From NCBI GenBank assembly GCA_041652815.1, contig JBAZGN010000003.1, forward strand, positions 65,530 to 129,529: DNA of 64,000 nt. The letters run 5' to 3'. Position 1 is the stretch's first letter. Every line of letters begins with the position of its first letter. Both the position numbers and the translations under genes were made by a program. The notes beneath the pieces were generated by a model. That model was not told the DNA's origin. It was given only the letters and a program-made list of their open reading frames with translations, and ran no database searches. This DNA is from Candidatus Omnitrophota bacterium. GTDB lineage: Bacteria > Omnitrophota > Gorgyraeia > Duberdicusellales > 4484-171. This document shows, in pieces, positions 14,034 through 25,943 of this stretch.

Positions 14034-14106
14034 GCCCACGTAGCTCAGTTGGTAGAGCAGCGCTTTCGTAAAGCGCAGGTCGGAGGTTCGACCCCTCTCG
14101 TGGGCT
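14034..14106 (+). tRNA. tRNA-Thr (anticodon CGT)
   Basis: Manual cloverleaf folding gives an acceptor stem GCCCACG/CGTGGGC, a D-arm GCTC-AGTTGGTA-GAGC and an anticodon stem GCGCT/AGCGC. The anticodon loop is TTCGTAA and the T-arm is GGAGG-TTCGACC-CCTCT. Total length is 73 nt with a T discriminator. Confidence 0.85.
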
Positions 14107-14213: not shown

Positions 14214-15467
14214 ATGATACAGGGATATTTAAAAATTCTGCGGCGTAAAAATTTTGTATTTCTTTGGATAAGCCAGATTATCGCACAATTCGGAGACCGG
14301 CTTACCCAAATGGCTCTTATTGGGTTGGTTTATAAATTAAATCCCGGCTCTTCCTTGGGCCTGGCTAAAATGTTTAGCTTGGCGATAATACCGGTATTTT
14401 TAATTTCTCCTATTTCTGGTGTCTACGTTGACAGGTGGGATAAACGAAAAACTATGTATGCAAGCGATTTTCTACGCTCTCTGTGTATTTTTCTTGTACC
14501 GATTGCGGTTTCCAAATTTCATTCGATACCTTTAGTCTATTTTTTGATTTTTTTATCTTTCTGCGTTGGAAGATTTTTTATTCCCGCCAAAATGGCAGTA
14601 ATACCTTCTTTAGTTGAAAAGGAAAGTTTTTTTATGGCTAATTCTCTGGTTTCTGTAACCGCAACTATCGCGGCGGTTTTAGGATTTGGCTTCGGAGGTA
14701 TGATTGTTGAAAAATGGGGAGTTGAACAGGCATTTTTCATAAACGCCATAACATTTTTAGTTTCCGGCATATTGATAAGTATGATGCGCATGCAGGAAAA
14801 GGCAAAATTTGACCCAAAAGACATCTTAGAATTAGGAAAAGACGCAATCGTTAAAGTCAAAAATTCATTTATTTTCGAAGTGCGGGAAGGGTTAAAATAT
14901 ATATTTAGCTCCAAAGAAACACGTTATGCAGCAAAAGTACAGTTTATTCTTTTCGCATTAATCGGTTCTTTGTATACTGTTTTTATTGTTTTTATACAGC
15001 AGACGCTTTCAACCGGCACTTTTGCGCTTGGATGGCTTGCAGTTGGTTCCGGAGCCGGCCTGTTTATTGGCTCACTTTTTTACGGCAGAATCGGCTCAAA
15101 TATATCCATACAAAAAACAATAAACCTTTCCTTATTTTCTTCTAGCCTTTACTTGATTACATTTGTCTCACTTTTGAAATTTTACCCGTATAAGCTTTTC
15201 GCTTTTATTTCCTGCTTCATCCTTGGCCTGATTGCCTCCCCGGTAGTCATTGCCGTAAATACTTTAATCCACAATGAAAGTGAGAACAAATTCTGGGGTA
15301 GAATTTTTAGCTCGCTGGAAATAATAATCCATATCGCTTTTATTATTTTTATGTTTATTGCTTCCTATCTTGCGGAAAAGTTCAGCCCCTTTACAATAAT
15401 TATAGCGGTAGGTATAATAACTATGATTTTATCGTATATTTTCTTAAGAGAAAAACCTGATGCTTAA
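14214..15467 (+). CDS. MFS-family transporter
   Basis: 417 aa with about 12 predicted TM helices and MFS-like loop motifs (GVYVDRWDKRK). Confidence 0.7.
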   Translation: MIQGYLKILRRKNFVFLWISQIIAQFGDRLTQMALIGLVYKLNPGSSLGLAKMFSLAIIPVFLISPISGVYVDRWDKRKTMYASDFLRSLCIFLVPIAVSKFHSIPLVYFLIFLSFCVGRFFIPAKMAVIPSLVEKESFFMANSLVSVTATIAAVLGFGFGGMIVEKWGVEQAFFINAITFLVSGILISMMRMQEKAKFDPKDILELGKDAIVKVKNSFIFEVREGLKYIFSSKETRYAAKVQFILFALIGSLYTVFIVFIQQTLSTGTFALGWLAVGSGAGLFIGSLFYGRIGSNISIQKTINLSLFSSSLYLITFVSLLKFYPYKLFAFISCFILGLIASPVVIAVNTLIHNESENKFWGRIFSSLEIIIHIAFIIFMFIASYLAEKFSPFTIIIAVGIITMILSYIFLREKPDA

Positions 15468-16743
15468 AATCGAAGAACACAAAGAACCCCAACACAATTT
15501 GCCTTGTGAAAATTTTATAAACCCAAAGCGGCTATACCTGCCGCTATCCCAACATACGGGAAAGCCTTCCTTAGTTTGCATAAAACCGCAAGACATAGTT
15601 GAACAGGGCCAGGTGATTGCAACTGAAGATGGCTATATTTCCAGCCGGTTACATTCGCCAAAGAAAGCAAAAATTATAGGTATTGATGACTGGTATCATC
15701 CGGTATTAAAAAGAGCGAAATGTATTATTGCTGAGCCAATAGAGGAAGAGGAACGCAAATTTACCCCGAAAAGTAAAATAGACAACCTTGACAAAGAAAC
15801 TCTCTTAAAAATAATCAAAGACTCCGGAATAGTGGGAATGGGCGGTGCAGCATTTCCCAGCCACGTAAAATTAAACCCGCCGAAAAAAATTGAAACACTA
15901 ATTGTAAACGGCTGTGAATGCGAACCATATCTTGCCTCTGATTATCGGCTTATGGTAGAAAATTTCGATGCGATATTTAGAGGGATAGAAATAGTTTGTA
16001 AAATCATTGAGCCAAAGAATGTTGTTTTTTCAGTAGAAGAAAACAAACAAGAAGCAATAAAGAAGCTGCACCTTGCGGTGAGCCTTAAAAAATATAATCT
16101 ACCCAACTTGTCTTTGGCTATACTTAAAACCGCCTATCCACAGGGGGGCGAAAAACAACTAATCTATTCACTACTCAAGCGTGAAGTTCCTTCAGGGAGG
16201 CTGCCGCTTGATGTAGGCTGTCTGGTTCATAATGTCGGAACGTTTTTTGCTATTTACGAAGCAGTTTATCTTGATAAGCCTCTCATTGAAAGAGTGGTTA
16301 CTTTTGCCGGAGATGCATTGGTATCGCCTAAAAATATACGATTAAAAATCGGCACAATCTTGCGAGAGCTTTTTGATAAAAAAATATTGGAATTTAAAAC
16401 CGCGCCTTTAAAGATAATTTGCGGTGGGCCGATGATGGGGATAGCCTTAGATAGTCTTGATTACCCTATATTAAAAGGTACGGGCGGTTTTCTATTCTTA
16501 AGTAAGGATGTTTTACTGGGCACAGAAAGGCCTTGTATCCGTTGTGGCGCCTGCGTGCGTGAATGCCCGGTTTCTCTTATGCCTACCTTAATAGATTTAA
16601 CCTCAAGGAGAGAACTTTGGAAAGAATCTGCCTTATATGGCGCTACTGACTGCATAGAATGCGGAGTGTGCAATTACGTGTGCCCGACTAACAGAATGTT
16701 GTTACAATCAATAAAACGCGCAAAATTAGAAATACCCAGATGA
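15460..16743 (+). CDS. rnfC: Rnf electron-transport complex subunit C
   Basis: 427 aa with the GMGGAAFPSHVKL signature and two 4Fe-4S motifs (CIRCGACVRECP, CIECGVCNYVCP). Confidence 0.85.
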   Translation: MLKIEEHKEPQHNLPCENFINPKRLYLPLSQHTGKPSLVCIKPQDIVEQGQVIATEDGYISSRLHSPKKAKIIGIDDWYHPVLKRAKCIIAEPIEEEERKFTPKSKIDNLDKETLLKIIKDSGIVGMGGAAFPSHVKLNPPKKIETLIVNGCECEPYLASDYRLMVENFDAIFRGIEIVCKIIEPKNVVFSVEENKQEAIKKLHLAVSLKKYNLPNLSLAILKTAYPQGGEKQLIYSLLKREVPSGRLPLDVGCLVHNVGTFFAIYEAVYLDKPLIERVVTFAGDALVSPKNIRLKIGTILRELFDKKILEFKTAPLKIICGGPMMGIALDSLDYPILKGTGGFLFLSKDVLLGTERPCIRCGACVRECPVSLMPTLIDLTSRRELWKESALYGATDCIECGVCNYVCPTNRMLLQSIKRAKLEIPR

Positions 16744-17255
16744 AAGAAATGTTAAAATATAGCCTTATTCTTTGTTTTATATGCATAGCTGCCGCAGGGC
16801 TTCTTTCCGGAGTATATTCTATCACCAATCCGCGCATTGAAGCCCAAGCGCAAGCCGAAATTAAAACAAGCTTAAAGCAGGTCTTGCCACAGGCAGCCAC
16901 ATTTGAACCGATTGTGGAAAACAAGGAAATTTTATATTATAAAGCTCGCAATGCAAAAAAAGAAATTATTGGTGTTGTTTTTACTGCAATAGCCAAGGGG
17001 TACTCAAGTGCAATAGAAACAATGGCAGCAATGACACCTAATGGCGAAATAATTGCAATAAAAGTAATTGCTCAAAATGAAACCCCTGGTTTAGGCACGC
17101 GCATAACAGAAAAAGAATTCACCAGTCGATTCGCAAAGAAATCAATTGACGAATTATCTAAAGTTTCTACGATAAGCGGGGCTACCATATCTTCAAGCAG
17201 CGTTATAACATCTATAAAACAAAAAGGCGAGGAAATTAGAAAATATTTAAAATGA
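16740..17255 (+). CDS. rnfG: Rnf complex subunit G (FMN-binding)
   Basis: 171 aa with a single N-terminal TM helix, an FMN_bind domain (ETPGLG) and the covalent-FMN motif TISGATISS. Confidence 0.75.
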   Translation: MKEMLKYSLILCFICIAAAGLLSGVYSITNPRIEAQAQAEIKTSLKQVLPQAATFEPIVENKEILYYKARNAKKEIIGVVFTAIAKGYSSAIETMAAMTPNGEIIAIKVIAQNETPGLGTRITEKEFTSRFAKKSIDELSKVSTISGATISSSSVITSIKQKGEEIRKYLK

Positions 17256-18214
17256 AAAACCTTACCGCATCATATTCACCTCATCTGCACACAAAAGAAT
17301 CTTTAGAAAAAATTATGTGGTTGGTATTTATAAGCTTGATACCTTCCGGTATGGCCGGGGTTTTAATCTTTGGGATGCGGGCTTTATGGGTGATATTCTT
17401 AGGCATAATCAGCGCCATAGCCACGGAAGCTTTAATACAACTGATGGCTAAAAAGAAAGTTGCTATATCAGATGGAAGTGCAGCGCTTACCGGCCTTTTG
17501 CTTAGTTATAATCTTCCAGTTTCCAGCCCCTGGTGGCTGACCGTAACTGGCTCCTTTATAGCAGTTGCTATCGGAAAACAAATATTTGGAGGATTAGGCC
17601 AGAATATTTTTAATCCTGCTTTGGTAGGTAGAGTATTTCTTATGGCATCATGGCCCAAATATATGACTAACTTTACCAGCCCGGTAAACACACAAGCATG
17701 GTTTAAATTTTCTGGCTATGATGCTATAACTGCAGCTACGCCTTTGACTTTGATCAAAGAAGGAAAACCCCTATTGGGCATCTCATATATGGATTTATTC
17801 TTGGGAAAACACGGCGGGTGTATTGGTGAGGTATGCATATTGGCCATACTCGCCGGAGCATTATTCCTTTTGATAAAGAAATATATTTCCTGGCATATAC
17901 CCATAACATACATACTAACGGTAGCCATATTTACCTGGATATTTGGCCCGAAAGGCGCATTTAGCGGAGATTGGCTTTTCGCTATTTTGTCAGGCGGTTT
18001 AATTCTGGGGGCGTTTTTTATGGCCACAGATTATGTTACTTCACCGTTAACCAGAAAAGGGCAACTCATTTTTGGCGTTGGTTGTGGCGTGCTTACCGCA
18101 GTTATCAGGCTTTGGGGAGGTTACCCTGAAGGTGCCTCTTACGCTATTTTAATAATGAACGCAACCACTCCTATTATTGACCGTTATACTAAAAATCGTA
18201 TTTTTGGAAAATGA
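17252..18214 (+). CDS. rnfD: Rnf complex subunit D
   Basis: 320-aa polytopic NqrB/RnfD-like protein with the N-terminal SPHLHT motif. Confidence 0.8.
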   Translation: MKNLTASYSPHLHTKESLEKIMWLVFISLIPSGMAGVLIFGMRALWVIFLGIISAIATEALIQLMAKKKVAISDGSAALTGLLLSYNLPVSSPWWLTVTGSFIAVAIGKQIFGGLGQNIFNPALVGRVFLMASWPKYMTNFTSPVNTQAWFKFSGYDAITAATPLTLIKEGKPLLGISYMDLFLGKHGGCIGEVCILAILAGALFLLIKKYISWHIPITYILTVAIFTWIFGPKGAFSGDWLFAILSGGLILGAFFMATDYVTSPLTRKGQLIFGVGCGVLTAVIRLWGGYPEGASYAILIMNATTPIIDRYTKNRIFGK

Positions 18215-18810
18215 AAATAAACACAAAAGAATTTATTAAAGGTCTGATTAAAGAGAACCCCACATTCGTTCTGGCGTTAGGCTTATGCCCAACATTAGCA
18301 GTTTCAACTTCGCTGAGCAACGGCCTTGGCATGGGGATAGCTGCTACTTTTGTTTTACTGGGTTCCAATATAATTATATCATTAATAAAAAACCTTGTGC
18401 CGAACAAAATAAGGATTCCTTGCTATATAGTTGTTATTGCAACATTTGTTACTATCGCGGAGCTTACCATGAAAGCTTATAGCCCCGCACTAAATCGCGC
18501 TTTGGGAATTTATGTTCCTTTAATTGTGGTAAATTGTATTGTCCTCGGACGCGCTGAAGCTTATGCCTCAAAAGCTTCTTTACTCAATTCAATATTAGAT
18601 GCTTTGGGCATGGGGCTGGGTTTTACCTTGGCATTACTTCTAATTTCCGGCATTCGTGAGATTCTCGGTTCAGGAACATTTTTCGGCCATACCTTGATAA
18701 AAGAGTATGAGCCAATATTTCTTTTTGCTTTGCCTTCAGGTGCACTTTTAGTTATCGGCCTTTTAATGTCTTTTTTTAATATTTTAAAAGAAAGGAAGCT
18801 AAAGCAATGA
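18211..18810 (+). CDS. rnfE: Rnf complex subunit E
   Basis: 199-aa NqrD/RnfE-like membrane protein, assigned as rnfE by its position before rnfA. Confidence 0.65.
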   Translation: MKINTKEFIKGLIKENPTFVLALGLCPTLAVSTSLSNGLGMGIAATFVLLGSNIIISLIKNLVPNKIRIPCYIVVIATFVTIAELTMKAYSPALNRALGIYVPLIVVNCIVLGRAEAYASKASLLNSILDALGMGLGFTLALLLISGIREILGSGTFFGHTLIKEYEPIFLFALPSGALLVIGLLMSFFNILKERKLKQ

Positions 18811-19415
18811 ATTTAGGCCAGTATCTTTCTATTTTTATTTCCGCGGTATTTGTCTATAACGTTATTCTTTCCCGCTTCTTAGGCCTCTGTTCATTCATAG
18901 CTATCTCTAAAGAAACCAAGCCAGCTTTTGCGATGAGCTTAGCGGTAATGTTTGTAACTACAATGTCATCAATAATTACCTGGCTTATTTATAAATTTTT
19001 ACTTATTCCTTTTAATATTACCTATTTACGTACGATATCTTTCATTTTAGTTATAGCGACATTCGTGCAACTAGTAGAAATGATTATCAAAAAAATCAGC
19101 CCGCCAATGTATAGATTTTTCGGCATATATTTGCCGCTCATTACGGTAAATTGCGCAGTGCTTGGAGTGGCAGTCCTTAACATTGATATGTTTTTTACAA
19201 ACGGCAAAGCTATGCCTGGTAGTTTTTATTATTCGGTTTTTCAAGGTATTTGCGTAGGGTTAGGCTATACGATAGCCATGGTTTTAATGTCCGGCATAAG
19301 GGAACGGCTTGAATTTTGCACTGTGCCTAAATGCGTTAAAGATTTTCCTCTTGGTTTTATTATTGCATCAATTATGAGCATGAGTTTTTTTGGTTTTAAT
19401 GGGTTTAGGTTCTGA
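18807..19415 (+). CDS. rnfA: Rnf complex subunit A
   Basis: 202-aa NqrE/RnfA-like membrane protein that is paralogous to the preceding gene. Confidence 0.65.
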   Translation: MNLGQYLSIFISAVFVYNVILSRFLGLCSFIAISKETKPAFAMSLAVMFVTTMSSIITWLIYKFLLIPFNITYLRTISFILVIATFVQLVEMIIKKISPPMYRFFGIYLPLITVNCAVLGVAVLNIDMFFTNGKAMPGSFYYSVFQGICVGLGYTIAMVLMSGIRERLEFCTVPKCVKDFPLGFIIASIMSMSFFGFNGFRF

Positions 19416-19503
19416 AATTTTATCCGCCTGCACCATTTGTTAGGATAGTAATAGCTATGACGGGCTTGCTCCTACGCTAAAGCTTCAGAGGACAAGCCGG
19501 CGG

Positions 19504-20373
19504 ATGTCACTGTATAGGCATGCTGGTTGGTGTTTCATTATGGAAATTTTAGTCCCTGTAATAATTTTGGCAAGTTTAGGTTTACTGTTTGGCGCAGGAC
19601 TCGCTCTTGCCTCTAGGTTTTTGTCAGTTAAAAGCAACCAGCGTCTTGACGCGATACACGGATTACTACCTGGTTCAAATTGTGGCGCTTGCGGAGGAGC
19701 CGGATGTTTTGGTTTCGCAGAGAGCCTGTTAAGCGGTAAGTTGCCACTTCAGGCGTGTAAAGTAAGCACTGAACAAACAAAAGAAAAAATAGCCACGCTA
19801 CTCGGCATAAAATTTGAAAAAACCGTAAAAACTGTTGCAGTTCTCCATTGCAATGGCGGCATAAGAGTAAAGGATAAATTTTTGTACCAGGGACTAGAGG
19901 ATTGCGTAGCTGCAAATTTGGTCTTAGAGGGGCAGAAAGAATGCCGCTTCGGTTGCCTTGGTTTTGGAACCTGTCAAAAAGCTTGTCCATTCGGGGCGAT
20001 AAAAATGACTAACGAACAATTGCCCGAGATTGATAGTACCAAATGCAAGGCGTGCGGTAAATGCGTAAGAGCGTGCCCAAAACATCTTTTTACCTTGATA
20101 CCAATAACGCAAGATATTTACATTGCTTGCAGCTCTCATGACATCGGTAAAAAAACAATCGAAGTTTGCCCTGTTGGCTGTATTGCTTGCGGAATATGCA
20201 CGAAAGTGAATGATTCACCATACTACCTGAAAGATAATCTTTCTCATATAGACTACAAGAAAGTGCTATCCAAGGAACCTCTGGAAGAAGGGCGTAAAAA
20301 ATGCCCTACTAAATGCATATTAGCAAGAAACCAGATAACAGATAACAGAGTACAGAAAACAGAGAAGAAGTAA
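19504..20373 (+). CDS. rnfB: Rnf complex subunit B (polyferredoxin)
   Basis: 289 aa with an N-terminal TM helix and several Cys clusters (CGACGGAGC, CRFGCLGFGTC, CKACGKCVRACP, CIACGICT). The last ~15 codons run into the E2 repeat element. Confidence 0.75.
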   Translation: MSLYRHAGWCFIMEILVPVIILASLGLLFGAGLALASRFLSVKSNQRLDAIHGLLPGSNCGACGGAGCFGFAESLLSGKLPLQACKVSTEQTKEKIATLLGIKFEKTVKTVAVLHCNGGIRVKDKFLYQGLEDCVAANLVLEGQKECRFGCLGFGTCQKACPFGAIKMTNEQLPEIDSTKCKACGKCVRACPKHLFTLIPITQDIYIACSSHDIGKKTIEVCPVGCIACGICTKVNDSPYYLKDNLSHIDYKKVLSKEPLEEGRKKCPTKCILARNQITDNRVQKTEKK

Positions 20374-20419: not shown

Positions 20420-21025
20420 ATGAATATAGCAATTTTAGCTTCAGGAAACGGAAGTAACTTTGAGGCGATAGTGAAAGCCGCAAAACGCGGTTACATTAAA
20501 GCCTTTATCAAGGTTCTAATTACCGACAAAAGCAATGCATATGTTCGGCAGCGTGCCAAACGCAACAAAATAAAAGATATACTTATCGACCCTTCAAAAT
20601 TTAAATCCAGGCTTGAGTTTGACGAAGAAGTGATTAAGGTCTTAGAAAAAGAAAAAATAGACTTGGTTGTTTTGGCCGGATTTATGCGGATACTTTCTGC
20701 GAAATTTGTAAAAAGGTTCAAAAACAGAATTCTTAATATTCATCCGGCGCTACTGCCTGCTTTTAAGGGAGAGAATGCTATTCGCAGAGCGTTACAACAT
20801 AACTGCAAGGTAACCGGTGTTACTGTTCATTTCGTAGACGAAAAAGTAGATAACGGGCCGATAATATTACAACAAGCCATAGAAATAAAAAGAGGTGAAA
20901 CGCTCGAAAGGCTTGAAGAAAGAATACACAATCTGGAACACAAATTATACCCCTTAGCTGTTAAACTCTTCACGGAAAGACGTATCAAAATAAAAAATAG
21001 AAATGTGGAAATTGAGCCCTTGTAG
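20420..21025 (+). CDS. purN: Phosphoribosylglycinamide formyltransferase
   Basis: 201 aa with an N-terminal ILASGNGSN stretch and the catalytic stretch NIHPALLPAFKG. Confidence 0.85.
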   Translation: MNIAILASGNGSNFEAIVKAAKRGYIKAFIKVLITDKSNAYVRQRAKRNKIKDILIDPSKFKSRLEFDEEVIKVLEKEKIDLVVLAGFMRILSAKFVKRFKNRILNIHPALLPAFKGENAIRRALQHNCKVTGVTVHFVDEKVDNGPIILQQAIEIKRGETLERLEERIHNLEHKLYPLAVKLFTERRIKIKNRNVEIEPL

Positions 21026-21682: not shown

Positions 21683-21800
21683 ATAACCAAGATCCAATAA
21701 ACAATAACCAAACAATATCCAAACAATATCCAATAACCAAATCTCAATAACCAAACATTATCGTTTGGTTATTGGTCATTGGAATTTGGAATTTGTTTGG
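21683..21800. repeat. AT-rich degenerate tandem/inverted repeat block (CCAATAACCAA units and their complement) in a convergent intergenic region
   Basis: The sequence ccaaacaatatCCAAACAATATCCAATAACCAAatctCAATAACCAAAC-attatc-GTTTGGTTATTG contains a 12-bp stem. It also carries GGAATTT x2 and CCGTCAATT...AATTTGACGG. Confidence 0.5.
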
Positions 21801-21871: not shown

Positions 21872-22687
21872 CTATTTATCTTCCATTAACGCTTTGCGGG
21901 TATAAAAGCGGGATTTTTTATTAAAGACATCATTGATTGTAACTTCGCTTATTTCCACAGGATGCTCATAGATTTTTAAAATCTTCTTGGTAACGGCTAT
22001 TGTTTCATCGAACGGGTATGGTAAACCTTCCTTGTATTTTTTTATCATAATATCGAAATTTATTTCCAGTTTACCGTTATAATATTTGGTATGTAAATCA
22101 TTTATTTTAAAATTGTCTTTCAATCCCTCTTCGGTAAATTTCTTTTCCACGTTTTGCTTTATAAGATACGAAATGAATTCTCCCAAATTTATGTCGTACC
22201 GCGAAATATGATCACCTTGAGTATCGCCGAGGGCCTTGGTGTTGACGGCGTTAATGAAAGCTTCCCGCTCCTGAAAATTACCAAGGGAAATATAGCCAGT
22301 TTCAAACATAACTAAATCCCTTATGTACCAAACATAATATATATCAAAGCCTGAGGTTATATCCGAGGCTACAAAGCAGTAGAATTTCGGGCGCTTGTCC
22401 ATACTTAATATTACGCGCCGAAGAGACAGAAATATTTTACGTATTTTATCAGATACGTCTTTTTCTAATTCACCCCTCTTATCTACAATTTTTTCAAACG
22501 GAGAATAAACCCAAATAGTATCGCCAACCTCCCAGACCTTAACATCAATATTGAATTCTTTTTGACAGAGATTTTTTATGGCTGCTTCAACGTCCTTACG
22601 GGAATAAGTCGGCGGCGTAGGAGAACAGGAAACAGAAAAAGTAATACAATAAATCAAGATACACGTAATAAATTTTCTTTTAGTCAT
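21872..22687 (-). CDS. Lipoprotein of unknown function (co-transcribed downstream of the tandem FtsH)
   Basis: 271 aa with a lipobox-like signal (ILIYCITFSVSC). No motif was recognised. Confidence 0.5.
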   Translation of the reverse strand: MTKRKFITCILIYCITFSVSCSPTPPTYSRKDVEAAIKNLCQKEFNIDVKVWEVGDTIWVYSPFEKIVDKRGELEKDVSDKIRKIFLSLRRVILSMDKRPKFYCFVASDITSGFDIYYVWYIRDLVMFETGYISLGNFQEREAFINAVNTKALGDTQGDHISRYDINLGEFISYLIKQNVEKKFTEEGLKDNFKINDLHTKYYNGKLEINFDIMIKKYKEGLPYPFDETIAVTKKILKIYEHPVEISEVTINDVFNKKSRFYTRKALMEDK

Positions 22688-22723: not shown

Positions 22724-25700
22724 TTAAATTTGATTTTCAGAGTCAGGAGATTTTGTGGGTTTATTTTTCGCATATTTCTTAAAAATTTCTTCTAATTCAG
22801 GATAGGAGAGTTCTTCTTTTTGTAATAATTGTTCTGCGATATATTCAAGAAGTTCTGATTCACGTTTTAACATATCTTCTGTTTGTTTAAGGCATTCCCG
22901 CAGTATATCCTGCGTTTCCGAATCAAGCTTTGACCGCATCTCTTCGGATAAGAACGGTTCTTTTTGCTGATTGCTAAAGCTTAACGCTTCCTGGAAATTT
23001 CCAATATACCCTGATGCGCCCATACCTACCTGCCACACCATGAAATGAGCGGTCCTTAAAGCGTTCTCAAAGTCAGCGGTAACGCCCGCGGTGGTAGTTC
23101 CAAATTTTAATTTCTCAGCAACATAACCAGCCAATGCACTGCGTATCCTGCCTAATAATTCTTCTTTAGTTCCATTCGAGATGTCGCCTTCGGAAGCATA
23201 CCACGCTACCCCTAAAGTACCGGTACGCGGGACAATGGAAACTTTAAACGGAAACCTTCCTTTTGCATAATACTGGGCAACACAATGTCCCGCCTCATGG
23301 TATGCAGTAAATTTAAGTGTTTCTTTGGTCTGTGTTAATTTTCGTTTAAGGCCCAGTGAAATTCTTTCCCGGGCTTCATCAAATTCCTTAAGCTCCATTG
23401 ATTCTTTCTTGTTTCTCACAGCGATAAGAGCCGCCTCCCTGACAAGGTTAGCAATATCAGCAGGAGACCACCCATGAGTAATACCTGCGAGTTTTTCAGG
23501 ATTTATCTCTTGAGGATTATATTTGACTTTAGCAAGATAATAATTAAATAGTTTTTTCCGGTCTTCATACGTAGGTAAATCCACATGTATTTTCCTATCA
23601 AACCTCCCTGGCCTAAGTAACGCCGGATCCATAAATTCTTCTTTCATGTTGGTTGCGCCAATAACTACTATATTATACTGCTCTTCCTTTTCCTTAAAGT
23701 TATCCATCTCTGCCAATAGTTGATTAAGTGTTTGATTATATTCCCTGTCGCCGCCGCTATGAGTATCGCCGCGTTTACCACCCACAGCATCAATCTCGTC
23801 GATAAAAATGATACAACCGCCTTTTGATAAAGCCAGTTCCTTAGCTTCCTGGAAAAGATGCCTAACGCGGCTGGCTCCTACGCCAACATACATTTCCACA
23901 AACTCAGAGCCAACCCTGTTTAAAAAAGGTACGCCCGCCTCATTAGCCATAGCGCTTGCAAGATAAGTTTTGCCACAACCAGGAGGGCCAAACATAAGTA
24001 ATCCACGAATAATTCTTCCACCTACCTGCTGTAAATGCGCTCTATCCTTTATGAGACTTACAATCTCTTTTGCTTCTTCTTTTGTCTCTTCCATTCCAAT
24101 TACATCATCCCAGCCAATTTCTTTTTTGCCTTTTTCCTTTTCTTTTTCTATTACCCTGGTTTTTCCAAAACTCTTGAATATATCTTCTATCGCATCATAA
24201 TCCAATTCGTCTTTCGTCAAAAGATCTGTAGCTATTTTCTCAAAAATCGGCAGTTCTTTTCTCATCATTTCATTTACTTCATTCAGACAAGCAGTGATTA
24301 TGTCGTCTTTATCTCTTTCTGCTACACCATATGCACCAAAACGGCTATCAGTAACCGATGTCGCACCGGAAGTGCCCATTCCCCATAAGGTAACCATCTT
24401 CTCTGCTAATTCGTTCGCGCGTTTTAAATCATCGCTTACCCCGCTTGAAGTGATTCCAAATTTTACTTTTTCAGCGCAATATCCGGCCAAAAGTATTTTT
24501 ATTTCTGCTAAAAGGTCTCCTTTGTCAGGAATAAATGATTCTTCTTTCTTTATCATCCATGTAGCACCACCATGGCTTTTGCGCGGAACAATACTTGCCT
24601 TAAAAACATCCTTTGTGGGCACCAGAAGATAAGTAACTATTACATGGCCTGCTTCGTGGTATGCTGCAATTTTTTTATCTTTTTCACTCATTTTAATATT
24701 AAGCCTTATGCCCATAGCTATTTTTTCTCTAGCCTCTTGAAGATCTACCATAGAAATCACATATTTTTTCCGACGTGCAGCAATAAGCGAAGCTTCCTTT
24801 ACAATATTTGCTATGTCTGCCGGACTGTTACCAACAGTGAGACGCGCCAGGCGGCCGACATGTATGTTTTGGCGGTCGTATTCTGTTTTATTAAGATAAA
24901 ATCTAAATAAATCTTCTCGGTCTTCAAGGCTTGGCAAACCTATGGATATTTTTCTGTCAAATCTGCCTGCCCGCATAAGCGCTGGCTCAAGCTCGTCTTC
25001 GCCAACATTTGTTGCAGCAATAACCACTATGTTATGCTCTTTTTGCCTAAGCCCATCCATTTCCGCGAGAAGCTGGTTGACTGCCATATTATAGCTTTCC
25101 GAGCCACCCAAACCAACGCCAGCTCGACGCGGACGAGCCACAGAATCTATCTCATCAATAAAAATAATACAACCGCCATGAAGCTCGGCTAAGGTACGCG
25201 CGGCATTAAACAATTTACCAATTTTTTTAGCGCCTAAACCCACAAAAATTCCTTCAAGCTCACTTCCTAAAACTGAAAGAAACGGCATATCACACTCTGT
25301 AGCTATAGCTTTAGCAAGATAAGTTTTGCCTACGCCAGGGCTACCGACAAATAAAACACCCTTTATAATTTGTCCGCTCATCTTTTCTAAACGCGCCCGT
25401 TCTCGTATTAATTCAACAACCTCCCAAGCTTCACGTTTTGCTTCTTTCAATCCAATAACATCTTTCCATGCCACACCAACATCCCCACCTTTAATTGCCT
25501 TCGTTGATATCTTGGATAGATCCTTCATTCCGCCGCCGCGATACATCATTGTTACGAACAAGTAGACATAAACAGCGCCAGTGATTATGCCTCCTACTAT
25601 ATATAAATAGAACTGGACCCCCATACTAGCCTTCATCTGTTCTTTGTAGAACGATTCCATCTTTACGTATGATTTTATGCTGGAAAGAATAACGAACACG

Positions 25701-25789
25701 AAAGAAACAGCAAGAATTACGAGGGTGGTGATAACGAGGATTCTAACCCAATATAATCGCCAAAATATTTTTAATTTTTTCGAACCCAT
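22724..25789 (-). CDS. ftsH: Tandemly duplicated FtsH-like protease: two complete AAA+ ATPase/M41 zinc-metalloprotease modules in one membrane-anchored polypeptide
   Basis: A 1021-aa continuous ORF has two N-terminal TM helices with a loop of only ~20 aa, so no periplasmic domain. Module 1 has GSPGVGKT (Walker A), IIFIDEID (Walker B), pore loop FVGLGA, arginine finger RAGRFDR and zinc site HEAGH. Module 2 has [29 protein letters not shown] and a second HEAGH. Confidence 0.8.
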
Positions 25790-25892: not shown

Positions 25893-25921
25893 ATTATACC
25901 ATACTTATTAACGTTTTGCAA
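25893..25921 (-). promoter_or_regulatory. Putative sigma70 promoter for the tandem-FtsH operon (minus strand: TTGCAA-N17-TATAAT)
   Basis: The reverse complement reads TTGCAAaacgttaataagtatggTATAAT. The ftsH ATG lies about 100 nt downstream (25789). Confidence 0.5.
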
Positions 25922-25943
25922 AGGCGATAGAACAAGGAAAATA

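Follow-up and report, generated by a model that had tools for sequence, protein, structure and literature searches.

The window analysed here, a stretch of 64,000 nucleotides from a Candidatus Omnitrophota bacterium, carries on its reverse strand one unbroken open reading frame that starts with ATG and encodes a protein of 1021 amino acids, followed, 36 nt past its stop codon, by a co-oriented gene for a predicted lipoprotein (Table 1). No other FtsH-like genes were found within the 64-kb window. In the 1021-aa protein, the Pfam families AAA (E = 3.4e-77), AAA_lid_3 and Peptidase_M41 (PF01434, E = 1.1e-70) each match in two stretches, as does the NCBIfam model TIGR01241 (FtsH_fam). The classical AAA set, that is, Walker A and B, sensor-1 and the arginine fingers of the SRH, is present twice, and both M41 domains contain the HEAGH zinc site and the region of the third zinc-ligand Asp, features that are kept in at least 90% of the 22 members of the class with both HExxH motifs. 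The preliminary description of a single-chain tandem FtsH-like protein with two full modules is thus borne out: PF00004-type AAA and PF01434 domains are doubled within one ORF, all the Walker A/B, pore-loop, arginine-finger and HEAGH motifs that it quoted are found at both modules, and neither module lacks catalytic motifs. Judging from these motifs, both modules are quite probably competent as ATPases and as proteases.

Table 1. Features of the tandem FtsH-like gene and its surroundings (positions in the window; residue numbers refer to the 1021-aa protein)
Feature	Coordinates	Strand	Evidence
Tandem FtsH-like CDS (TM hairpin, A1, P1, linker, A2, P2)	22724..25789	-	ORF listing of the window, domains, motifs, full-length orthologs
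N-terminal membrane hairpin of two helices (residues ~13-82); loop short and conserved (11-residue motif), periplasmic domain absent	25544..25753	-	hydropathy, ortholog alignment, AF2
AAA module 1 (A1), residues 106-361: Walker A GSPGVGKT at 149, pore loop FVG182, Walker B IIFIDE at 208, sensor-1 AATN258, arginine fingers RAGRFD273	24707..25474	-	
M41 protease module 1 (P1), residues 369-539: HEAGH378, third-ligand Asp region GVSDDL450	24173..24685	-	
Inter-module linker, residues 539-559 (21 residues): sequence variable, length conserved, predicted disordered	24113..24175	-	alignment, pLDDT
AAA module 2 (A2), residues 556-815: Walker A GPPGCGKT at 601, pore loop YVG634, Walker B IIFIDE at 660, sensor-1 GATN711, arginine fingers RPGRFD726	23345..24124	-	
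M41 protease module 2 (P2), residues 816-1005: HEAGH831, third-ligand Asp region GVTADF902	22775..23344	-	
Conserved partner gene, 271-aa predicted lipoprotein, signal peptide ending ...SVSC21, repeated alpha-beta-beta units	21872..22687	-	
Promoter-like site preceding the tandem gene, TTGCAA-17-TATAAT with TG	25893..25922	-	consensus match only
Terminator-like hairpin (13 bp) following the lipoprotein gene	21745..21774	-	

In the membrane anchor, hydropathy places two hydrophobic helices at about residues 13-36 and 58-82, separated by a loop of at most ~20 aa, and in the AF2 model, helices 3-43 and 46-83 form a hairpin without a folded periplasmic domain, so that hydropathy, orthologs and AF2 all agree with the earlier reading of two TM helices and no periplasmic domain. 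The N-termini of the orthologs align from residue 1, which supports the 1021-aa start; the 978-aa call of JGI (P0001) would drop TM1. Hydropathy and the ortholog alignment reveal no TM segment in module 2. The Lys/Glu-rich stretch that was said to join the two modules was found at residues 539-565 (27 residues).

For a metagenome-derived contig, the obvious a priori worry is that a frameshift, an assembly error or a chimera fused two neighbouring ftsH paralogs, and apart from this general concern, we found nothing that would support such an artefact. The search for proteins with the same double architecture recovered more than 50 independent full-length orthologs (A-P-A-P, where A stands for the AAA and P for the M41 module) from NCBI, JGI, ENA and Logan, labelled Ca. 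Omnitrophota, that keep the continuous frame at 50-80% identity and 99% coverage. Among independent assemblies, the continuous frame is seen in 22 proteins with both HExxH motifs and in about 40 in which the first one is degenerate; the latter form a sister subclass, A-P*-A-P, with YExxH in P1. A TM segment or start region of its own never precedes module 2 in any of the orthologs. The merger was rejected on the strength of the full-length orthologs from independent assemblies and, at the level of sequence comparison, is effectively refuted; we regard it as exceedingly improbable. Another protein with the A-P-A-P order, P0169 (1428 aa), has a TM pair before each module; this candidate for a second example was set aside as not comparable given that its N-terminus is Ala-rich and resembles a transit peptide and that it is probably a eukaryotic gene-model fusion.

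The relationship of the tandem protein to FtsH is clear. Both modules can be aligned with solved FtsH over their full length (E = 1e-100), and each superposes on FtsH, AFG3L2 and YME1 protomers with a TM-score, normalised to the target, of about 0.8. The whole protein scores 862.7 bits against TIGR01241, but only by summing the two modules; taken singly, module 1 (405.7 bits), module 2 (461.8 bits) and, likewise, the single-module relative P0099 (485.8 bits) stay below the equivalog cutoff of 600 bits that is set for one FtsH unit. With both modules individually below this cutoff, the protein belongs to a divergent FtsH-like clade. Whereas canonical FtsH, a homo-hexamer, has one AAA and one M41 domain per chain and a TM pair flanking a folded periplasmic domain of ~70-100 aa, the window protein has the TM pair but not the domain, and carries two of each catalytic unit; and whereas the m-AAA proteases consist of separate, individually anchored subunits, it is a single chain. 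Like the type II tandem AAA proteins, it has more than one classical AAA module in its chain. Its AAA modules are, however, separated by M41, whereas those of the A-A-A-P and A-A-A-A-P proteins, found at the same genomic position in other lineages, are directly consecutive. The only label that PGAP gives to these proteins is 'AAA family ATPase', and surveys of FtsH in Omnitrophota thereby fail to see them. In the literature, we found no description of a tandem or multi-AAA FtsH, nor of any FtsH from Omnitrophota; the supplement of the Omnitrophota survey paper lists K03798 by presence only, without copy number or architecture. As far as this literature goes, two complete FtsH copies per chain is a previously undescribed design, in keeping with the initial impression that the architecture is not a known family.

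The two modules, which had been described as diverged, are 45% identical over ~450 aa (E = 1e-131), a similarity that, at the sequence level, is far above chance. Their AAA domains differ in the distance to outside references: module 2 is the closer one both to the single-module A-P proteins (65% identity, vs 58% for module 1) and to 7zbh (49% vs 46%), so that, by sequence identity, module 2 is nearer than module 1 to the single-module relatives and canonical FtsH. When the two A-P-A-P subclasses are compared, the P1 of one has its closest counterpart in the P1 of the other, and likewise for P2, and in a neighbour-joining tree of the AAA modules, all A2 modules fall into one clade, which together points to a single old duplication. 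The internal branches of this tree are very short, and its placement of the window-type A1 with the A-A-A-P modules finds no clear support in the identity matrices (58% to A-P, 56% to A1 of the subclass with degenerate P1, 54% to AAAP_A1); we relied on the tree solely in combination with the N-terminal anchor motif that is shared.

The downstream gene, which had been noted as co-oriented and as coding for a possible partner, is indeed conserved. At each of the 11 related loci with a gene for a relative (L001-L011), it lies immediately downstream, and it accompanies every architecture class: profile matches (E = 1e-19 to 1e-135) also place it at A-P, A-A-A-P, A-A-A-A-P and A-P*-A-P loci, with a signal peptide and Cys in every copy. 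The 271-aa protein matches no Pfam family; it is a conserved partner of the tandem protein and, on sequence grounds, is predicted to face the periplasm. The 36-nt gap, in which the terminator scan found no terminator, and the hairpin after the lipoprotein gene are consistent with a bicistronic operon, and the promoter and terminator scans can be taken as consistent with it only, given that the counts of such sites are not above those in shuffled sequences. Taken jointly, the identity and conservation of the tandem gene, its origin by duplication and its operon are conclusions that we hold with great confidence.

The genomic slot itself, located upstream of the lipoprotein gene, with a convergent purN beyond the latter, is occupied, depending on the lineage, by an A-P, A-P-A-P, A-A-A-P or A-A-A-A-P protein. 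The last two forms, with 3 or 4 AAA modules and one protease, share with the tandem form the anchor motif and the lipoprotein partner. The tandem form is, then, no one-off: it is one state in a lineage-wide series of module numbers.

The question that these observations raise is how the chains assemble. The preliminary description envisaged a trimer of covalent dimers, a built-in hetero-hexamer analogous to Yta10/Yta12. Spelled out further, this would mean that three chains form one planar ring, with modules 1 and 2 alternating and only 6 TM helices in the membrane, as a covalent counterpart of Yta10/Yta12 or of the type A/type B complexes; the K/E-rich linker would start at the P1 base and climb the exterior until it meets the N-terminal end of the A2 next to it. 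Such an assembly is possible, if on the unlikely side in our estimation. The FtsH family is known to make use of alternating hetero-hexamers, both modules retain every catalytic residue along with the arginine fingers that act in trans, and the subclass with an inactive P1 would fit a ring of three live and three dead proteases. Furthermore, the route has a precedent in AFG3L2, where, according to the structure preprint, 29-30 ordered residues of the C-terminal extension climb along an exterior groove from the M41 base to the membrane-proximal ATPase face, touching the neighbour subunit. However, from the equivalent of AFG3L2 residue 750 to the start of the next AAA domain, the window protein has only ~17 residues (~17-22 from the M41 base to the AAA start), about 40% fewer than the 30-residue path of AFG3L2, and it is a neighbour that must be reached. 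A taut strap would also impede the spiral-staircase movements that the ATPase domains of YME1 and AFG3L2 are reported to make above a flat ring of proteases. Fully extended, a linker of 22 residues spans ~75 A and so is not strictly too short for a planar ring, and the tight conservation of its length (21-27 residues) could mean that it is a strap just long enough for this purpose.

The alternative is a hexamer of six chains in two stacked tiers. M41 ends, with its C-terminus, at the base of the protease ring, directed away from the ring in YME1, which places the N- and C-termini of a module on opposite axial faces, and the linker between P1 and A2 (22 residues here, 21-27 in the family) is about as long as the tether between TM2 and A1 (~18-22 residues), both being predicted to be disordered. 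The D1 modules of p97 and NSF likewise have their termini on opposite axial faces, and the tandem ATPases of these proteins are stacked. The multi-AAA relatives bear on the choice as well: with four AAA modules per chain, a planar hexamer cannot be tiled, and with three, a planar ring would have an incomplete M41 ring, a dimer of A-A-A-P leaving only two M41 domains. The AF2 monomer, in which the modules are modelled confidently and their packing is not (pTM 0.47; linker pLDDT < 50 at residues 548-555), was set aside as a readout of the geometry between modules, about which chain-level Foldseek matches cannot report either; the absence of a confident interface between modules 1 and 2 is in line with stacking and argues against the planar ring. 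On the other side, the A-A-A-P relatives may be independent in origin, so that their geometry need not carry over, and the subclass with YExxH in P1 would more simply fit a mixed planar ring, half-inactive rings being tolerated in m-AAA and FtsHi-type complexes. We know of no machine with a protease ring between AAA rings. Considering the short linker, the position of the M41 C-terminus and the multi-AAA relatives, the stacked two-tier hexamer seems at least as likely as the trimer of covalent dimers, and it is the geometry that we prefer, with a probability of roughly 0.5.

A third reading, in which the chain is a polyprotein precursor whose charged linker is cut, possibly autocatalytically, releasing a soluble module 2 that assembles with or beside the membrane-bound module 1, appears improbable. 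By analogy with E. coli FtsH, which trims its own C-terminus, an exposed, Lys/Glu-rich and predictedly disordered linker might be a substrate, but there is no conserved cleavage motif in the linker, the sequence of which is free to vary among the orthologs while its length is retained, and the fusion persists across deep divergence (50% identity), which suggests that the covalent linkage itself is under selection.

The chain, consisting of the hairpin, A1-P1, a linker of ~20 aa and A2-P2, goes back to an ancient duplication within the gene that copied the cytosolic AAA-lid-M41 unit as a whole. Under the preferred stacked arrangement, six such chains would join via their M41 and AAA domains, as in FtsH. 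The membrane-proximal A1/P1 hexamer would handle membrane substrates, and the A2/P2 hexamer, suspended from the base of the P1 ring by six short flexible tethers just as A1 is from the membrane, would take soluble or handed-over ones. More tentatively still, Omnitrophota might possess a multi-tier FtsH, encoded at one conserved locus with one conserved lipoprotein partner and built, depending on the lineage, of 1-4 AAA tiers and 1 or 2 protease rings, of which the window protein would be a four-layer A1-P1-A2-P2 hexamer of ~690 kDa.

Like canonical FtsH (TIGR01241; MEROPS M41; T. maritima, T. thermophilus, E. coli), the window protein has an N-terminal 2-TM anchor, classical-clade AAA domains with the pore-loop aromatic, SRH arginine fingers and the lid, and M41 with HExxH and Asp; unlike it, the protein has two modules per chain, no periplasmic domain and a dedicated lipoprotein partner gene, and its modules are only 46-49% (AAA) and 34-35% (M41) identical to FtsH. 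As in the hetero-hexameric FtsH proteases (Yta10/Yta12, AFG3L2/SPG7, cyanobacterial and chloroplast type A/B), two diverged modules would serve one complex, making sub-functionalisation possible, but the subunits of those proteases are separate and each TM-anchored, whereas here the modules are covalently joined, the second is anchorless, and the sharing of one ring is only a candidate. The Ycf2-FtsHi chloroplast import motor (8xku, chain 8xku_E of which is among the fold matches) combines inactivated with active FtsH protease sites, in parallel with the A-P*-A-P subclass; the window protein differs from it in being bacterial, a covalent tandem, and intact at both HExxH sites. Type II AAA proteins (p97/Cdc48, NSF, NVL) have two AAA modules of the same clade per chain, joined by a linker of ~20 residues and arranged in stacked hexameric rings, and p97 and NVL are strong matches in both sequence and fold. 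In the window protein, by contrast, M41 intervenes between the AAA modules, and each tier would bear its own protease ring; no layered protease of this kind is known to us. The concept behind the planar model, neighbouring AAA+ subunits joined covalently into a ring of dimers or trimers, was reportedly realised in the linked ClpX pseudo-hexamers engineered in the Sauer and Baker laboratories; these are artificial, and the termini of ClpX are close together on one face, unlike those of FtsH modules.

FtsH, which acts in membrane quality control, is the universal AAA+ protease anchored in the membrane; to our knowledge, its mechanism has been studied only in forms with one module per chain. A conserved natural chain with two intact modules would imply one of two assemblies: a hetero-hexamer with covalently joined modules, or a double-decker with an unfoldase/protease stage on each deck. 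If stacked, the window protein would be the first AAA+ protease in nature in which two complete stages of this kind follow one another on a single membrane anchor; if planar, it would be the first covalent pseudo-hexamer among natural AAA+ proteases; either way, it would be structurally unprecedented. The relatives with three or four AAA modules at the same locus offer natural variants that bear on subunit order, ring number and protease-site dosage, questions approached so far with engineered linked subunits. Finally, for an FtsH that lacks the periplasmic domain, the locus identifies a previously unannotated, clade-wide lipoprotein partner.

By domain content the tandem protein belongs to the FtsH family, but unlike canonical FtsH it has two modules per chain and lacks the periplasmic domain. 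The preliminary description proposed two complete AAA/M41 modules in one continuous ORF, and the scans bear this out: AAA (3.4e-77), AAA_lid_3 (1.9e-23), and Peptidase_M41 (1.1e-70) from Pfam, and TIGR01241 (FtsH_fam) from NCBIfam, each match the 1021-aa protein in two stretches, as had been expected for AAA and Peptidase_M41. The motifs quoted there are all in place in modules 1 and 2, respectively, namely, Walker A (149 GSPGVGKT, 601 GPPGCGKT), Walker B (IIFIDE at 208 and 660), the pore-loop aromatic (FVG182, YVG634), the arginine fingers (RAGRFD273, RPGRFD726), and the zinc site HEAGH (378 and 831), along with sensor-1 (AATN258, GATN711) and the region of the third zinc ligand, Asp (GVSDDL450, GVTADF902). 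The two halves (residues 96-545 and 546-1021) align with 45% identity (E = 1e-131), and the solved FtsH chains 7zbh, 2ce7, and 7tdo match module 2 end to end (E ~1e-94 to 1e-100). The AlphaFold2 model has a mean pLDDT of 78.7, and a whole module from it can be overlaid on the FtsH, AFG3L2, and YME1 protomers with a target-normalised TM of ~0.8. The N-terminus consists of two hydrophobic helices with a short conserved loop ([11 protein letters not shown]), modelled as a helical hairpin (3-43 and 46-83); therefore, a folded periplasmic domain is absent, as originally proposed for this pair of TM helices. In the public JGI annotation, this gene (P0001, 978 aa) is begun 43 codons too far downstream, which removes TM1; the 1021-aa start is right because the orthologs align from residue 1.

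Orthologs with the same double architecture are numerous. Among 5.8 billion clustered proteins, the homologue search recovered dozens of relatives of 1005-1027 aa with 50-80% identity and 99% coverage from NCBI, JGI, ENA, and Logan assemblies, most of the named ones carrying the label Candidatus Omnitrophota/Omnitrophica. Seven further loci in species-representative genomes encode a full-length relative (47-80% identity), with titles naming Ca. Omnitrophota (4/7), 'uncultured Planctomycetales' (2/7), or 'bacterium' (1/7). The continuous A-P-A-P frame (A, AAA and lid; P, M41 protease; P*, M41 with degenerate HExxH) is common to all full-length relatives found, which rules out a merged pair of adjacent genes; an artefact of any kind is hardly credible. 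Within the 64-kb window, there is no FtsH-like gene other than the tandem one.

The window protein is one member of a module-number series, which emerged when module 2 was used as the probe and the architectures of the best 120 matches, all with a short 2-TM N-terminus, were counted (see the table). Walker A/B, sensor-1, and the two arginine fingers are present in each AAA module of the A-P, A-P-A-P, A-P*-A-P, and A-A-A-P classes; in A-A-A-A-P, the extra second module has partly degenerated, its Walker A reading GPxGxGKt and its first arginine finger lacking conservation. Both modules of the A-P-A-P classes retain the pore-1 aromatic, which has decayed in the A-A-A-P middle module. Within the subclass of the window protein, conservation of HExxH and of the third-ligand Asp reaches at least 90%, in P1 as well as in P2. 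The larger sister subclass, A-P*-A-P, no longer has the first His of the P1 HExxH motif; to judge from its sequence, the retained domain is a built-in pseudo-protease module. P0022, with an extra inactive M41 between the modules, could be an artefact because its sole source is one short contig.

Features of the window and related loci, and architectures among the best 120 matches
Feature	Position	Strand	Length	Number	Remarks
tRNA-Thr (CGT)	14034-14106				only RNA gene detected in the window; no other Rfam match there at the gathering threshold
Probable Rnf-type operon	14214-20373				co-oriented ORF run
FeS/4Fe-4S protein	19504-20373				ends the run; domain scan covered the run from 19504 onwards
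purN	20420-21025				window neighbour
Partner	21872-22687	-	271 aa		predicted lipoprotein
Tandem FtsH-like CDS	22724-25789	-	1021 aa		single ORF, ATG start
Partner-TPR genes	L003 9008-11005; L004 9014-11065		665-683 aa		
Two Band_7/SPFH genes	L004 3876-5829				GCA_021735655.1
A-P			~561 aa	23	single module
A-P-A-P			~1000-1025 aa	22	both HExxH present; window included
A-P*-A-P	L013 5001-8054		~1020 aa	~40	first site YExxH; P0025, P0030-P0070
A-A-A-P	L014 5001-8306		~1100 aa	26	three consecutive AAA, single M41; P0065-P0118
A-A-A-A-P	L015 5001-9110		~1367 aa	6	four consecutive AAA, single M41; P0026, P0028, P0034, P0035, P0038
A-P*-P*-A-P			1217 aa	1	P0022

The two modules have diverged, as had been noted at the outset. 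In the identity matrices, each protease domain of one A-P-A-P subclass has its nearest counterpart at the same position in the other subclass, P1 with P1 and P2 with P2. The A2 modules all group together, and both the single-module form and canonical FtsH resemble module 2 more than module 1. These groupings suggest a single old duplication, after which module 1 diverged faster, a scenario that falls short of a supported phylogeny, the internal branches of the neighbour-joining tree being very short.

In the window, the probable Rnf genes are followed by purN, a BatD-like gene, the 271-aa gene, the tandem gene, the divergent purU, and an ABC sugar-binding protein gene; the Rnf-type assignment comes from synteny with Rnf-annotated genes in L003, L004, and L016. 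The related loci share a layout of the FtsH-like gene, a no-Pfam gene of ~270-360 aa directly downstream, convergent purN, and Rnf or MFS genes (A-P-A-P in L001, L003, and L004; A-P in L016; A-A-A-P in L014; A-A-A-A-P in L015). The longer chains fill the same lipoprotein/purN slot in other Omnitrophota; in the A-P*-A-P locus L013, the partner gene is present within a different neighbourhood. The suggestion that the co-oriented lipoprotein gene encodes a partner holds: a profile of the partner family matches the gene downstream of the protease gene in every class (E = 1e-19 to 1e-135), the partner directly follows the protease gene in 11/11 loci encoding a relative by tblastn (L001-L011), and every copy starts with a signal peptide ending in Cys. 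The window genes are separated by 36 nt, with no terminator-like site in this gap; a promoter-like site upstream and a 13-bp hairpin downstream of the pair are consensus matches only. The partner domain of L003 and L004 carries a long TPR-repeat region as a C-terminal fusion, and the gene start overlaps the protease gene end; in L004, two HflK/HflC-like genes are divergently adjacent to the tandem gene.

For the quaternary structure, the planar trimer of covalent dimers proposed initially, in which three chains would make up a single alternating ring, is one of two models under consideration. In its favour, the FtsH family commonly forms alternating hetero-hexamers, the trans-acting residues are all intact in both modules, and the dead-P1 subclass would simply have three live and three dead sites. 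Against it, the N- and C-termini of a module lie on opposite axial faces, an arrangement that leads to stacked rings in the tandem ATPases p97 and NSF. Such positions follow from AFG3L2, where the M41 C-terminus lies at the protease ring base and residues 750-779 are required to reach the membrane-proximal ATPase face, and from YME1, where the C-terminus points away from the ring. AFG3L2 residue 750 aligns with about residue 543 of the tandem protein (C-terminal helices), leaving a linker of 17 residues to W560 (22 from the last helix end; family range 21-27), ~40% shorter than the AFG3L2 path, that would need to reach the neighbour and tolerate the spiral-staircase excursions of the ATPase domains described for YME1 and AFG3L2. 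The linker is also about as long as the TM2-to-A1 tether (~18-22 residues), both being predicted disordered; the AlphaFold2 pTM of 0.47 approximates the share of one module, with no confident inter-module packing; and A-A-A-A-P orthologs, which have the same partner and an anchor loop motif of the window type, cannot be fitted into a planar hexamer. Because of these points, we lean, with a probability of about 0.5, to a two-tier stacked hexamer, in which an A1/P1 ring would lie at the membrane with an A2/P2 ring tethered beneath, and regard the planar trimer as less likely. The two-tier hexamer has weak points of its own, namely, the substrate route to tier 2 and the dead-P1 subclass, which is awkward to explain, and we know of no precedent for a stacked two-tier protease. 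A self-cleaved precursor seems improbable, the remaining probability falling to arrangements beyond these.

The tandem protein and its relatives constitute a divergent clade of FtsH-like proteins. Modules 1 and 2 alone (405.7 and 461.8 bits) and the single-module relative P0099 (485.8 bits) score below the 600-bit TIGR01241 equivalog cutoff, and because single modules do so, the NCBI pipeline names the orthologs only 'AAA family ATPase'. In a set of 1.84 billion representatives at 50% identity, essentially a single full-length entry, P0049, stands for the window-type A-P-A-P class, in the company of many other multi-AAA FtsH-like chains; P0162-P0306 include 36 A-A-P clusters (740-1120 aa) as well as chains that have 4-6 classical AAA modules and no protease (for example, P0176, 2124 aa, and P0192, 2055 aa). 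Full-text literature searches found no description of tandem, multi-AAA, or Omnitrophota FtsH. The sequences of this tandem FtsH-like class are public yet unrecognised. The initial interpretation is upheld as to identity and partner, and to that description the present analysis adds the series of module numbers, the conservation of the partner, and the status of a divergent clade.
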